Below are positions 5,404 through 45,903 of a DNA stretch of 64,000 bases, piece after piece. Origin of the DNA: a virus (Duplodnaviria; Caudoviricetes); the IMG/VR virus record IMGVR_UViG_3300005544_000020, positions 128,001 through 192,000 of that record; one strand, written 5' to 3'. Under the pieces are notes generated by a model. The model was not told the origin of the DNA, made no database searches, and saw only the letters and a list, made by a program, of their open reading frames with translations. Position 1 is the stretch's first letter. Every line of letters starts with the position of its first letter. A program made the translations under genes and the position numbers.

Positions 5404-6014
5404 GCCTGGATTCCATGCTTCAACCGGATCGCCTCGAGAGACTCTTCGAAAGGCACCGAGGCGGAGATCCCGATATCGAAATGATGGAGCTCAAAGAGAG
5501 TCTTCGGAATGTAAACCCCCCGATGGCCCATGCTCGCGAGCGTCAACCACAGGTCCCAATCCTGGAACCTCTTGATGGTCGAATCGAAGCCCACGAAGGC
5601 TTCCCTTCTCATGAGGCTCATCGTTTCCACGTAATTCCCACGCTTGAGTGATTCTATATTCCAAGGCATGGCCTTGCGAATGCCGTTTCCATTGGGGTAG
5701 GGAATGCCCTGATACATGACGTGGCGCGCATCGGAATATGCGAACGTGGAATCCGGATTCGCTTCAAGGGCTCTCAGCATTTCGATCAACGCAAATTCAT
5801 ATAGGTAGGAATCATCGTCCACGAACATCAAATAGGGTTGCGTGGCCTTCGTCGCGCCGACATTCCTCTTCTCGCAAGCGCCTCCATCCCAATCTTCGAT
5901 GATGATCTCTAGTGGATTGTTGTCGATAACCTGGGGGAGGCAATTCTGAAGGAACCAGCTTTCCCTGTCCTTCCGATGAGGGATCACTACGCTGATTGGC
6001 AGCGGAGCAAACAC
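5400..6014 (-). CDS. GT2-family (GT-A) glycosyltransferase
   Basis: ISVVIP, KRNVG, YLMFVDDD, GFD...FQDWDLWL. Confidence 0.85.
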   Translation of the reverse strand: MFAPLPISVVIPHRKDRESWFLQNCLPQVIDNNPLEIIIEDWDGGACEKRNVGATKATQPYLMFVDDDSYLYEFALIEMLRALEANPDSTFAYSDARHVMYQGIPYPNGNGIRKAMPWNIESLKRGNYVETMSLMRREAFVGFDSTIKRFQDWDLWLTLASMGHRGVYIPKTLFELHHFDIGISASVPFEESLEAIRLKHGIQA

Positions 6015-7709: not shown

Positions 7710-8161
7710 GTTCTATCTCCTTCCATTTCAAACCCCATCTCGCCCAGTGTTATCAATTCCTGAAATCCCTGTTCACCAAAGAACGCCCTCGCTCTCTCGG
7801 TGAGGGATTTCAGAATTTCATACTCTCGCTCGATATCTTCGATGTCCTGCGTCATGTCCATCATCTCGCGAGCGAAATCGTTGAACTCTGGGGCTCTGAG
7901 ATAGAGGTTCATGTCGTAGACCAGCATTTCCAGACTACCTTCGATGGTCGGCCATGTCCGGACGCCGGCCCCTTGGGTATACGGCATCTTGAGAACTACT
8001 CCAGGCCGGTTCAACGTCAGGATGAAGAACTTCTGCCCTGGATGATCTCTTTTACGGCAGATCATCTCAGGATAGACCTCGAGGTAATGGAAGGAGACGT
8101 CGTATTTTCGAATGAACCGTCCTAGCGTCCCTGGAATGAAGGTGATCTTTCTATGCTTCAC
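7685..8161 (-). CDS. Hypothetical protein
   Basis: Packed ORF in the coding frame series. Confidence 0.5.
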   Translation of the reverse strand: MKHRKITFIPGTLGRFIRKYDVSFHYLEVYPEMICRKRDHPGQKFFILTLNRPGVVLKMPYTQGAGVRTWPTIEGSLEMLVYDMNLYLRAPEFNDFAREMMDMTQDIEDIEREYEILKSLTERARAFFGEQGFQELITLGEMGFEMEGDRTWPKRTCG

Positions 8162-13916: not shown

Positions 13917-16228
13917 GCAGCCTTCTTTTCTTCCAGCATTTCATGCAGGACAGCGTCCAGGATGCCGGCCTCCTGGATGGTCCGGTCGCCTTCGCCCAGG
14001 ATCGAGTTGACCACCTCGCGTTTCGCATCGATCATCTTGGCGATCTTCTCCTCGATGCTGCCGAGGAGCAAGAGATAGTAAACCATGACGGGCATCGTCT
14101 GCCCGATCCGGTGGGTCCGGTCCTCGGCCTGGGAATGAATACCGGGCGTCCAGTCCAGTTCGATAAAGACGACCGTGTGGCAAGCCACCAGATTTGCGCC
14201 GATCGACATCGCCCGGATGCCGCAGACCAGGATCTCGAGGTCTCCTTCCTGGAAGGAGTCGATCACGTTCTGACGATCCATCCCCGTCACTCGGCCGTCG
14301 ATGAACGCCGTCTTGATGCCCTTCCCCTGGAAAGCTGCCACGATGCGGTCGATGGTGTCATGGTGGACAGCGAAGACGAGGACCTTCTTCTCGGTCGCCT
14401 GCAGGCCAGCGGTGAATTCGATGCATTCGGTGAACTTGGCGTTCACGGCCGCTTCCTTCAGTTCTTCGATCTCCGCGATCGCAAGATCCTTGAGACCCGC
14501 ATTTCGCGCGGCCTTCTCCGCATGCTTAGCGACGTAGGCTTTGCGATCGGCCTCCGGGAGCGCTTCAATCAGGGTCTTCCATTCCTCCCGTTCCTTGAGG
14601 ATTTTCCTCAGGCGGTCCAGAGCATCCACTTCCTTCTTGCGATAGACCTTGTCTTCGTCATCCTCGACAAGAAAGGGGATCATGGTTCGAGTCTTGGGCG
14701 GGAGCTCCTTCATGACCTGGTCCTTGGTCCGCCGGATCATGATCGTGGAGCGCAGCGTCTTGTCCAGTTCCGCAATATTCGATACGCCGCTGAAATCCCA
14801 GACCATTTTGCCGCCGGCCGCTGGCTTTTGATAGGCGCCGCAATAACGGATTCCATAGTCAAACCGCTTGGGTGCGACGCTCTTGTTGACGATCTGGATC
14901 TGTGTCCAGAGTTCCATCGGTCGGCTATCGATCGGTGTTCCCGTCAGGCAGATGGAGTTCTGGACGATCTCGGAGATCTCGATGGAGGCGACTGTACGCT
15001 GGGCGCTGATTTCCTTGAGGAAATGGGACTCGTCGGAGATCAGCGTCTTGTAGCCGGCCTTCACAAACTCATCGAAGGGAACGCCGTTCACGAAGACGAG
15101 CTTGTATTCCGGATCGGCTCGGACCCTTCGGGCTCGAGATCCCTGGGCCTTGATCAGGTCCAAAACCCGGTTGATTCGGTTCCGGTTGTCGATGTCCGTG
15201 TACTTCTTCATCGCCTTCTCGAGCAGCTCATAAGCCTGAAGGCCGGCCCAGGCCAGATGCTTCTGGCCATACTCCTGGAGCTCCTTCTTCGGCGAAAGAA
15301 GGTTCCGGAGCCAGGTCTTCGGCGTCTCGACCGCCAGAAGGTCATAATTCGTGATCGTGATGTCGTAGCCCGCGAGGGGCGTCAGGGAGACGTCCAGACC
15401 CGCCTTCTTGAAGCTCGAAAGGGACGTCTTCCCCGAGATCAGAAGGGGCTTTAAATCGGTGAATTTCGAGACGGCGCGGTACCAGGTGACCCGAACCAGG
15501 GAGGGGCACAGTACGAGGGCAGGAAGGGCCCTTTCCGGCCTCAGGATGAGGTATCCCAGGCTCTGGGGGGTCTTCCCGAGGCCCATTTCGTCGGCAATCA
15601 GCGCCCGGCCCTCATGATCGTCGATCCACTTCACCCCGGCCCGCTGGAAGGGGTAGAGCTCGATCTTGCTGGGAATCACTATCTCCGCGGTATGGGACCG
15701 GCTTTCCTCGTAAGCTTTCTTGCCGTCGTCGACGGCGACCCTGAGGGCAGGATCCAGATCCAGGGAGCATTTCTCTGCCTTGAACGTGGCGATCGCCGTC
15801 TCAATGTCCACTGGGGTGAACGGGATGAGCCAATTCTTGCCGTCCTTGTCCCACTTTCGGGACTTGAGGCGCTTGACCACGTCGACCAGATGTTGATCGT
15901 AGGGGAACACGACGGCCACCATGGGGCCGCCGGCGGTCTCCACCTTCTTCAGGCTGACGGTCGCCCCGATCGTCACTTCGCTCTCAATGATGTCGAGCGA
16001 GAACGGATCCGGCGGCACGAGCGACTCGAATTCCAGTCCCAACTCCGTCAGCTTGCCTTCATAAGGCCGCAGGATCGTCCAAAGGCTCCAGATCTGCCGG
16101 CTCTGCTTCTGACGGGCCTTCAGGATCGTGCCCACGGAGACGAAATCCGTGTCGGACAAGCCAGCATCTCCGTGCTCATAGAGTCTCTGAGCCGTCTGGA
16201 GGATGCTTTCGATGGTCGGCTCTGTCAT
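13913..16228 (-). CDS. SNF2-family helicase with HARP-like domain (SMARCAL1-like)
   Basis: LYPFQRAG, ADEMGLGKT, ISDESH, LTGTP, QAEDRTHRIGQ; upstream FPYD...WD...W HARP-like segment. Confidence 0.92.
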   Translation of the reverse strand: MTEPTIESILQTAQRLYEHGDAGLSDTDFVSVGTILKARQKQSRQIWSLWTILRPYEGKLTELGLEFESLVPPDPFSLDIIESEVTIGATVSLKKVETAGGPMVAVVFPYDQHLVDVVKRLKSRKWDKDGKNWLIPFTPVDIETAIATFKAEKCSLDLDPALRVAVDDGKKAYEESRSHTAEIVIPSKIELYPFQRAGVKWIDDHEGRALIADEMGLGKTPQSLGYLILRPERALPALVLCPSLVRVTWYRAVSKFTDLKPLLISGKTSLSSFKKAGLDVSLTPLAGYDITITNYDLLAVETPKTWLRNLLSPKKELQEYGQKHLAWAGLQAYELLEKAMKKYTDIDNRNRINRVLDLIKAQGSRARRVRADPEYKLVFVNGVPFDEFVKAGYKTLISDESHFLKEISAQRTVASIEISEIVQNSICLTGTPIDSRPMELWTQIQIVNKSVAPKRFDYGIRYCGAYQKPAAGGKMVWDFSGVSNIAELDKTLRSTIMIRRTKDQVMKELPPKTRTMIPFLVEDDEDKVYRKKEVDALDRLRKILKEREEWKTLIEALPEADRKAYVAKHAEKAARNAGLKDLAIAEIEELKEAAVNAKFTECIEFTAGLQATEKKVLVFAVHHDTIDRIVAAFQGKGIKTAFIDGRVTGMDRQNVIDSFQEGDLEILVCGIRAMSIGANLVACHTVVFIELDWTPGIHSQAEDRTHRIGQTMPVMVYYLLLLGSIEEKIAKMIDAKREVVNSILGEGDRTIQEAGILDAVLHEMLEEKKAA

Positions 16229-45482: not shown

Positions 45483-45556
45483 TGGTGCTCCCGACGGGAT
45501 TCGAACCCGTATGCGGACTTTTAGAGAGTCCTAGCCCGCCTTTGGCCCACGGGAGC
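45483..45556 (-). tRNA. Amber suppressor tRNA, anticodon CUA
   Basis: GCTCCCG-TG-GGCC(AAAGGCG)GGCT-A-GGACT(CT CTA AA)AGTCC-GCAT-ACGGG(TTCGAAT)CCCGT-CGGGAGC-ACCA; 74 nt, encoded CCA. Confidence 0.92.
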
Positions 45557-45564
45557 AGGATAAA

Positions 45565-45903
45565 TCAGCCGATCACCCGATAGCGATTCCCGTCAGGGAA
45601 CTCGATGAAGACACGATCCTGGATTCCGCCGGAAGTCTGGCCGCCGGAGCTAGAGGCTGGCTGAGAGATCGCCAGTTCTTCCAGCCTCTTGATTCCCGCT
45701 TCCCTAGCCTTCTTTTCCGTGGAGAACTCCTCCAGGTTGTACCACTCATTGGAGAATGTATCGTACCCGAGAAGTTTGAAGACGGCTTTCTTCTTCTTAG
45801 ACGGAGCCGGTTCTTTCTCCTTCTTCTTGGGAGCAAGGCGTCCGATTCCGTTCCGCTTCTTCCATTCGTTGATCGACATCCAGGGCATGTCCCCTCCTCT
45901 CAA
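45565..45903 (-). CDS. Small hypothetical protein
   Basis: Packed ORF upstream of the tRNA. Confidence 0.5.
   Translation of the reverse strand: MRGGDMPWMSINEWKKRNGIGRLAPKKKEKEPAPSKKKKAVFKLLGYDTFSNEWYNLEEFSTEKKAREAGIKRLEELAISQPASSSGGQTSGGIQDRVFIEFPDGNRYRVIG

Follow-up and report, generated by a model that had tools for sequence, protein, structure and literature searches.

An amber suppressor tRNA in a standard-code phage and a recurrent amber codon at the start of a Pth2-like gene

The tRNA(CUA) gene and the amber-interrupted Pth2-like gene

The window analysed here, a stretch of 64,000 nucleotides (64 kb), comprises bases 128001-192000 of the single 236,090-bp virus record IMGVR_UViG_3300005544_000020 (Caudoviricetes), which has a GC content of 57.7% and is ~90% complete according to CheckV. 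At positions 45483-45556, on the minus strand, it carries the gene of a transfer RNA (tRNA) with the anticodon CUA and an encoded CCA end, hereafter tRNA(CUA). On the same strand, 3.1 kb downstream (41979-42335), lies a gene of 118 codons with a predicted Pth2 fold, whose fifth codon is an in-frame UAG (42321-42323). We describe the two genes, their joint occurrence in other phages, and a release factor gene of the same phage that also bears on the reading of UAG.

An earlier note, drawn up from the letters of the stretch, had described a fully canonical 74-nucleotide tRNA with the anticodon loop CT-CTA-AA, and this description is borne out. ARAGORN calls a tRNA of this length with the anticodon CTA at these positions, and in a local search of the region it scores 54.2 bits with Rfam RF00005 (gathering threshold, 29; E = 2.8e-11), the full model (1-71) being aligned. 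A run over the whole window at the gathering threshold had skipped the gene, a filter effect given the score obtained locally. Parsed by hand, the acceptor, D, anticodon and T stems have 7, 4, 5 and 5 bp, respectively. The acceptor stem begins with G1-C72, C2-G71 and U3-A70 and is followed by the discriminator A73; U8 is present, the D stem contains G11-C24, and the 7-nucleotide D loop holds G18G19. The 8/9 linker has two nucleotides, the variable loop has four and the T loop reads TTCGAAT, while the anticodon loop of seven nucleotides, CU-CUA-AA, has U33 and a purine at position 37. All hallmarks of a canonical elongator tRNA (cloverleaf, U8, G18G19, U33, the T-loop motif TTCRA and a score that exceeds the gathering threshold) are thus found in this molecule. 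Throughout the 236,090-bp record ARAGORN finds three tRNA-like genes, all of them inside the window.

Fourteen homologous tRNAs from related loci show that the cloverleaf has been maintained. In their alignment 98.3% of the stem cells are paired and 15 of the 21 pairs show compensatory changes; none of 500 shuffles matches this, and slid controls reach at most 48% pairing. The covariation therefore excludes a chance origin, and the tRNA is real. Invariant in this subset are G1-C72, C2-G71, C4-G69 and C5-G68. Among 43 distinct suppressor tRNAs that are linked to homologues of the Pth2-like gene, the loop CUCUAAA is kept in 35, and we take it to match an efficient 'extended anticodon' context. 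The acceptor stem is more variable, starting with GC in 30, GG in nine and CC in two of the 43, and so is the discriminator (A in 22, G in 12, U in seven and C in one).

That the gene is a degenerate tRNA copy, that its anticodon is an assembly error, or that it encodes a carrier of a non-standard amino acid similar to the pyrrolysine tRNA (tRNA-Pyl) can be given hardly any credence. ARAGORN does label it tRNA-Pyl, and the whole-window Rfam run missed it; the label, however, follows from the anticodon alone. The stems are perfect and the CCA end is encoded, and the 43 homologous or analogous CUA tRNAs come from independent assemblies and carry compensatory changes. A tRNA-Pyl has a 6-bp anticodon stem, a 3-nucleotide variable loop, a single base between acceptor and D stem, and a small D loop without G18G19, and it lacks T54-Psi55-C56. 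The G18G19, the T loop TTCGAAT, the 4-nucleotide variable loop, the 5-bp anticodon stem and the 2-nucleotide linker found here are all unlike it, in agreement with the earlier note, which had also set the molecule apart from tRNA-Gln. The identity elements of bacterial tRNA-Gln are U1-A72, G73, G2-C71 and G3-C70, and the corresponding positions here (G1-C72, C2-G71, U3-A70 and A73) differ from them.

TAG has remained an ordinary stop codon in this genome. Gene calling by codon usage, with a model trained on this genome, gave 420 genes, 349 of them on the minus strand. TGA ends 229 genes, TAA 97 and TAG 94 (~22%); among the 161 best-scoring genes TAG ends 35. The seven TAG stops which the earlier note had cited (2340, 8151, 10041, 20035, 36781, 37361 and 43204) are all TAG, on the minus strand. 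In-frame merging with the neighbouring gene is found across 24 of 92 TAG stops versus 25 of 97 TAA stops, and TAG stops show no regional bias along the genome (chi-square p = 0.23). Back-up stops after TAG are not enriched, the median extension being 42 codons versus 38 after TAA (p = 0.26). Short leaders consisting of an ATG, one to eight codons and a stop before called genes likewise show no excess of TAG (3/85, versus 8/101 for TAA and 8/233 for TGA). The genome uses the standard code, and TAG behaves like TAA. A whole-genome or block-wise recoding of TAG (code 15) is contradicted by open reading frame (ORF) statistics under four codes, by the merges, by the regional stop usage and by the relatives, as the related loci give no sign of recoding. 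The earlier note had come to the same view, as long genes are not fragmented by TAG.

Against this background a single site stands out. We scanned the 236-kb genome for stop codons behind which a frame of coding character continues for at least 60 codons, with no start codon for at least 20 codons. The scan returned exactly one site, the TAG at 42321-42323, and the controls with TAA and TGA returned zero. The gene begins ATG AAC GAA ACG TAG GTC GCC and ends with the TGA at 41979-41981; its product reads M-N-E-T-UAG-V-A-A-P-K-K-Y-V-Y-I-G-I-R. After the TAG, the first possible start codon in the frame (ATG, GTG or TTG) is 41 codons away. We refer to this codon as the gate and to the gene as amber-gated.

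The product was modelled with AlphaFold2 from an alignment of 19 homologues (predicted local distance difference test, 87.9; predicted template modelling score, 0.81). In a Foldseek comparison with the PDB the best 12 matches are all Pth2/Bit1 proteins, with a probability of 1.00 and template modelling scores of 0.64-0.73, and the profile of a 20-member family matches two PDB Pth2 chains over nearly the full length (E = 5e-4 and 8e-4). We are confident, from the model and the profile, that the predicted fold is that of Pth2; the activity is predicted only, as peptidyl-tRNA-hydrolase-like. The gate itself lies within a variable N-terminal tail of low model confidence. Strand 1 (residues 12-18) and helix 1 (residues 23-41), which include family-invariant residues, lie between the TAG and the next start codon. 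A folded product therefore requires translation through the UAG.

As only this one gene requires decoding of UAG, we consider it very improbable that the phage represents an evolutionary intermediate or a partial switch to code 15. In published models phages gain a suppressor tRNA before in-frame TAG spreads to late genes, and both parts of the published kit for a code change, tRNA(CUA) and release factor 2 (RF2), are present in this phage (10.1101/2021.08.26.457843; PMC13037316). The published route, however, begins at low GC and with a depletion of TAG (Borges et al., preprint), while here the GC content is 57.7%, TAG is as common as TAA, the TAG stops have no block structure and the relatives are not recoded.

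Recurrence of the gate and the suppressor in other phages

Single-protein searches with the Pth2-like gene found no related loci. A database search returned 49 Pth2-like homologues, many of which had been called as stumps of 63-72 residues because the gene caller meets a stop near the 5' end. In the first 13 loci recovered from IMG/VR, all copies of the gene begin with a Shine-Dalgarno sequence, an ATG, one to four codons and a TAG, and in 10 of the 13 a tRNA(CUA) lies within 8 kb, mostly 0.1-1 kb away. Four further metagenome lineages have the same arrangement, with one to five codons between ATG and TAG over the 17.

A wider profile yielded 54 IMG/VR loci, which were pooled with the others and dereplicated at 90% identity to 46 clusters. 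The gene is amber-gated in 39 of these. For 31 of the 39 a tRNA(CUA) was detected, which lies within the flank that was fetched in 28 cases and outside it on the same record in three. Five clusters have an ordinary start without a gate, and none of them has a suppressor tRNA. The difference in the presence of tRNA(CUA) between gated and ungated clusters is significant both for the flank (Fisher p = 0.004) and for flank and record together (p = 0.001). The related loci share only the Pth2-like gene with the window, and their GC content ranges from 36% to 64%. Gate and tRNA(CUA) hence co-occur on many unrelated backbones, and since nothing else of these backbones is shared, the tRNA and the gated gene appear to travel together, in three loci also with tRNA-like RNAs behind the gene (ARAGORN).

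Before dereplication there are 45 amber-gated loci, and in 37 of them a Shine-Dalgarno sequence stands ahead of the upstream ATG rather than ahead of the codon that follows the TAG. When the 39 gated clusters are taken together with the gene of this phage, the gate is codon 3 in 24 of the 40, codon 4 in three, codon 5 in 12 and codon 8 in one. A purine follows directly on the TAG in 39 of the 40 gates, versus 62 of the 94 TAG codons that serve this genome as genuine stops (p = 4e-5), and threonine precedes the gate in 22 of the 40. Judged by these sequences, the codon context of the gate looks tuned.

The two remaining clusters depart from this scheme in different ways. In locus L217 the gate is a TGA (M-M-N-K-N-T-A-Y-E-TGA, at 5970-6010), and a canonical tRNA(UCA) lies 4.5 kb away (1395-1469). 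In locus L238 (5782-6010) the Pth2-like gene has an ordinary start with its own Shine-Dalgarno sequence and ATG; adjacent upstream lie a tRNA(CUA) and an out-of-frame leader, ATG GAA TTT CGG TAG. The readthrough frame of this leader ends at the Shine-Dalgarno sequence of the gene, which might allow translational coupling.

Locus L008 has a tRNA-like gene behind the gated gene (L008:8415-8487, identical to G001:C1:5062-5133), with an 8-nucleotide loop, UCUCUAAC, that contains CUA. This gene might be the suppressor of that locus, with an expanded loop; a canonical tRNA(CUA) is absent from the 17.6-kb L008 fragment. In L011/L012 an initiator-like tRNA-Met(CAU) lies directly before the gated gene (7916-7992), where other loci have tRNA(CUA), and the part of this 103-kb record that was examined holds ~30 tRNAs and no CUA tRNA.

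The arrangement is also found in cultured phages. A tblastn search detected the Pth2-like gene in 24 GenBank phage records. In Acinetobacter phage ME3 the gene begins ATG ACT TAG, and an annotated 'tRNA-OTHER, anticodon CTA' lies 0.45 kb upstream. Cronobacter phage GAP32 (M-A-Q-TAG) and Serratia phage BF (M-T-H-TAG) have a tRNA(CUA) ~3 kb away; in Ralstonia phage RsoM2USA (M-L-TAG) the distance is 13 kb, and in the 595-kb uncultured phage LR756511 (M-T-H-TAG) it is 8 kb. As cultured phages with the pair are known for Acinetobacter, Cronobacter, Serratia, Ralstonia and Xanthomonas, it is accessible to ordinary genetics and proteomics. The pair also exposes an annotation problem: some GenBank records, among them those of GAP32, BF and RsoM2USA, contain the gated gene in truncated form or not at all, and some metagenome pipelines recover it only by calling the entire contig as code 15.

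The two Xanthomonas phages, XacN1 and Xoo-sp13, are of particular interest. In both, the Pth2-like domain forms the C-terminal part of an ORF of 280 residues, with ~180 extra residues before it, and the domain of XacN1 ORF364 is 38% identical to the gated product. A Shine-Dalgarno sequence is followed by ATG-AAG-TAG in XacN1 (L171:1943-1951) and by ATG-AAG-AAG-TAG in Xoo-sp13 (L176), both in frame with the ORF. This TAG lies four codons upstream of the annotated starts (ORF364 and Xoosp13_327, respectively), an ATG following four codons after it; the flanking codons differ between the two phages and the TAG is kept. XacN1 has four copies of a CUA tRNA gene, for which its authors reported no identifiable target, finding no similarity beyond 18 amber stops (PMC5852040). 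We propose ORF364 as a candidate target of these orphan tRNAs. The cases are alike in that a standard-code jumbo phage carries canonical tRNA(CUA) genes together with a homologue of the gated gene; the difference lies in where readthrough was sought, as the XacN1 study examined only the regions beyond C-terminal amber stops.

Taken together, the uniqueness of the gate in this genome, its position within the gene and its association with the tRNA make it highly probable that tRNA(CUA) is a dedicated decoder of a conserved amber gate in the Pth2-like gene. Of the conditional, targeted readthrough proposed by the earlier note, the targeting is thereby supported at the level of sequence, by an amber codon at position 5 of the Pth2-like gene which co-occurs with tRNA(CUA) in dozens of lineages.

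Several observations weigh against this assignment. In this phage tRNA(CUA) and the gate are not adjacent, and the gated gene lacks a clear Shine-Dalgarno sequence, which its relatives have at that place. Pfam, including PTH2 (PF01981), gives no match for the gated product. No CUA tRNA was detected for eight of the 39 gated clusters, most of which are fragments, and only L217, a single locus, shows stop codon and anticodon changing together. In the reverse direction, we sampled 98 IMG/VR loci that had been found by a CUA-loop pattern and confirmed by ARAGORN. Only 22 of the 98 have the Pth2-like gene in the same short locus; of 50 further records with a CUA tRNA that were searched whole, 12 have the gene elsewhere, and 11 of 16 near-complete records with a CUA tRNA lack it. 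The gate is nearly always accompanied by tRNA(CUA), and tRNA(CUA) has other uses in other phages. Finally, the suppressor also reads the stop codon of ~22% of the genes of its own phage, where back-up stops are not enriched. Suppression would thus have to be weak or timed, unless the phage tolerates readthrough.

This last point could also be read in another way, namely as a generally leaky readthrough that extends the C-termini of the 94 phage genes ending in TAG, or of host genes, making alternative isoforms or disturbing the host proteome, with the Pth2 gate as a by-product or a sensor. An active suppressor must indeed make extended proteins in a genome with this stop usage, and for at least half of the CUA tRNAs sampled from phages no Pth2-like partner was detected. 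Nothing, however, points to conserved extensions, since merges across TAG are no commoner than across TAA and the 18 amber stops of XacN1 gave no indication of them either (PMC5852040). General leakiness would moreover leave unexplained why 39 lineages have TAG fixed within codons 3-8 of a single gene family, usually with the tRNA adjoining. We therefore regard it as improbable and favour the dedicated decoding of the gate.

The UAG frameshift site of the phage release factor 2 gene

Outside the window, at genome positions 15054-16122 on the minus strand (L394:1055-2123), the phage encodes a complete prfB (RF2) gene, identified by TIGR00020 (379.9 bits versus a cut-off of 370) and PF00472 (121 bits). 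Its frameshift site consists of a Shine-Dalgarno sequence, ATG, 23 codons, an internal GAGGAG, a TCG spacer, CTT, TAG and C. As in the +1 frameshift site of bacterial prfB, a Shine-Dalgarno-like element, a spacer, CTT, a stop codon and a C follow one another (GAGGAG-TCG-CTT-TAG-C); it differs in that the stop, at codon 24, is TAG in place of TGA and hence not of the type that RF2 reads, and in that the SPF tripeptide of the factor is replaced by SRF. The motif CTT-TAG-C is kept in two relatives (L401 and L402, 87% and 75% identity) despite diverged flanks, while a relative of 59% identity (L403) has CTT-TGA-T. Across the phage and its relatives the tripeptide is SRF, SDF or SEF. With the suppressor reading the TAG, the 0 frame of prfB runs 11 more codons to a TGA.

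The TAG in the +1 site of this phage prfB is a new finding of the present analysis. In a survey of 8,164 bacterial prfB motifs the stop is TGA in 98.6% and TAA in 1.4%, and TAG does not occur; its authors argue that RF2 itself has to be able to read the in-frame stop of prfB (Prince et al. 2025, PMC12421855). The UAG-type site breaks a rule that holds across 8,164 bacterial genomes and suggests that phages rewire the control of termination around UAG. A single-protein search with the phage RF2 found no related loci, and a profile search of IMG/VR for its clade gave only distant matches.

The site opens a further possibility for tRNA(CUA), namely that it mainly tunes the synthesis of the phage RF2 at CTT-TAG-C, a role that can coexist with the Pth2 gate. 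Anything that decodes UAG in the A site would block a productive +1 shift there, be it the release factor 1 (RF1) of the host, tRNA(CUA), or the phage RF2 if its SRF motif reads UAG. The completeness of the gene, its intact motif and the conservation of the TAG in two relatives are consistent with such a role, and a change to a codon that is read by tRNA(CUA) is unlikely to be neutral, given the absence of TAG from all bacterial motifs of the survey (PMC12421855). Most phages with the tRNA-Pth2 cassette, however, lack RF2, six of 45 having a different, short RF1-like ORF instead, and the direction and size of an effect on RF2 are purely a matter of deduction. Tuning of RF2 as the main role of the tRNA is thus conceivable, though rather unlikely, and we retain the gate of the Pth2-like gene as its principal target.

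The short RF1-like proteins of these six of the 45 cassette-bearing records (L395-L400) comprise ~230-275 residues with a GGQ motif, and five of them have the tripeptide PPT. The N-terminal domain found in cellular release factors is absent from them.

Charging, proposed mechanism and the wider locus

The amino acid that tRNA(CUA) carries was approached by comparison with other tRNAs. BLAST against phages gave as best match only 47 nucleotides of a tRNA-Glu (the 3' half, 81% identity), and BLAST against Escherichia coli genomes gave no match. A pattern scan for the T arm of tRNA(CUA) combined with a GCNCCCG acceptor retrieved 108 prokaryotic tRNAs, 56 of them for Arg, 30 for Glu and nine of a short Leu(UAA) type. 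Over the full length, the identity of tRNA(CUA) to the retrieved prokaryotic classes is only 0.68-0.77 and similar for all classes. The 4-nucleotide variable loop and the acceptor sequence GCUCCCG resemble the Glu type, but the D stem has G11-C24 and is not of the U11-A24 type; the acceptor also resembles those of Arg tRNAs. Suppressors compared with the other tRNAs of their own phages reach 0.6-0.7 identity, to differing isotypes. Glutamine at the gate, as it appears in the homologues P0014 and P0040, was rejected: the DNA reads TAG in both, and the Q is a product of code-15 gene calling.

Synthetases of the GluRS/GlnRS type (PF00749) and of the LysRS/AspRS type (PF00152) were not found in the 236-kb genome, which points to a host synthetase as the enzyme that would charge tRNA(CUA). 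The gate probably acts as a switch at which the identity of the inserted residue does not matter: the tail around it is variable and modelled with low confidence, and the bodies of the suppressor tRNAs vary from host to host.

Among all prokaryotic tRNAs retrieved, the short tRNA-Leu(UAA) molecules are the closest to tRNA(CUA) (0.73-0.77). These tRNAs of 74-76 nucleotides have the anticodon UAA and a short type-I variable loop; they were found in the loci L026, L032, L087, L099, L104, L107 and L123 and come from Actinomycetota (Nonomuraea, Demequina) and from a metagenome-assembled genome of the Prochlorococcaceae. Bacterial tRNA-Leu normally has a long variable arm.

The immediate surroundings of the tRNA gene suggest how it may be produced. 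On the same strand, an upstream ORF of 107 residues (45565-45888) ends with a TGA 8 nucleotides before it, and a downstream ORF (44714-45439) begins 44 nucleotides past it, both according to the gene calls. A consensus scan found neither a promoter nor a terminator adjoining the gene. With its flanking ORFs so close and no promoter-like site beside it, tRNA(CUA) is therefore probably released by processing of a long polycistronic transcript. A 10-bp hairpin (45457-45488, minus strand) was predicted by ViennaRNA in the fold of 45440-45495 (-22.8 kcal/mol), in which the 3' end of the tRNA (GCACCA..., GCACCAUCUA) pairs with the sequence just downstream. No run of U follows it, and it may be a processing or terminator-like element. 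A weak promoter candidate on the minus strand, TTGACA-17 nucleotides-TAGTCT, was read from the sequence before the gated gene (42343-42371) and was not reported by the consensus scan; it ends 7 nucleotides before the ATG and, if used, could give a leaderless or near-leaderless messenger RNA.

For charging, actual suppression and purpose we infer the following course. The tRNA would be cut from the phage transcript with its CCA end already encoded, be charged by the host synthetase and compete with RF1 at the UAG of the gate. Ribosomes that insert a residue there would make the folded Pth2-like enzyme, while termination would give a four-residue peptide. The output of a tRNA-recycling enzyme would in this way be tied to the state of UAG decoding and to tRNA processing and charging, which is our best guess at the purpose. 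A time delay, a check on tRNA processing or charging, and a read-out of the balance between RF1 and suppressor are all plausible functions of such a lock.

Directly behind the gated gene, on the same strand, follow four tRNA-shaped RNAs that end in CCA (41649-41971), as seen with ARAGORN, with Rfam and in the sequence. Two of them are labelled 'tRNA-Ala(cgc)' and score 55 and 49.4 bits with Rfam, with an inserted anticodon arm. These two have G32 G33 and lack U33, and a closed hairpin of the GNRA type (with a GCAA or GAAA tetraloop) replaces the anticodon loop. Odd tRNA-like calls of ARAGORN behind the gated gene are also present in L001, L008 and L020. It is tempting, though on balance doubtful, to see tRNA(CUA), the gated hydrolase with its anticodon-less tRNA mimics and the UAG-gated RF2 with the SRF motif as one control circuit centred on UAG. 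Such a circuit would sense or reset the balance of termination and readthrough at UAG, for instance after RF1 has been disabled or tRNAs have been damaged by phage or host defence. If this held true, single-gene amber locks would be a widespread regulatory device of standard-code phages.

Among known systems, the code-15 phages (crAss-like, Lak, Agate) come closest in that a phage tRNA(CUA), sometimes accompanied by RF2, works in a standard-code host, and the idea that a suppressor tRNA gates particular phage genes has been put forward for them (10.1101/2021.08.26.457843; PMC9523058). There, however, many late genes contain in-frame TAG, TAG is a rare stop and the GC content is low, whereas here a single early TAG interrupts one small gene, 22% of the genes terminate at TAG and the GC content is 58%. 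The suppressors supE and supF of E. coli, psu of phage T4 and synthetic amber-gated genes likewise place the anticodon CUA in a tRNA that is normal in all other respects and competes with RF1; these laboratory suppressors are mutants or engineered parts, while the present tRNA and target form a natural, conserved pair. If our assignment is correct, the pair would be a natural counterpart of the suppressor-dependent gene expression used in synthetic biology. The selenocysteine (tRNA-Sec, SECIS, SelB) and pyrrolysine (tRNA-Pyl, PylS) systems also read a stop codon as sense in specific genes only. The phage system differs from them in its ordinary tRNA architecture, in lacking a dedicated synthetase (PF00749/PF00152) and an obvious downstream element, and in that the residue lies in a variable tail.

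PTH2 proteins of jumbo phages, which have the same archaeo-eukaryotic type of fold and also occur in large phages, have been discussed together with tRNA repair (Iyer et al., PMC7824862; RaK2 ORF188, PMC3622015). The word 'suppressor' occurs zero times in these two papers, which mention no in-frame stop, and the family described here escapes the Pfam PTH2 model. Literature text searches found no description of a Pth2 gene paired with and gated by tRNA(CUA). We regard the one-gene lock-and-key arrangement in standard-code phages as a new form of the known gating of translation by suppressor tRNAs; tRNA(CUA) itself is a further example of the known suppressor tRNAs. Suppressor tRNAs of standard-code phages had been a loose end, and the conserved amber gate gives them a concrete, testable job.

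Between tRNA(CUA) and the Pth2-like gene the minus strand also encodes a small acetyltransferase of the GNAT family (43204-43560; Pfam Acetyltransf_7, E = 1.7e-6), whose conservation in the related loci is limited to a weak match in L007. The GNAT toxins include some that acetylate aminoacyl-tRNA, a modification that Pth reverses.

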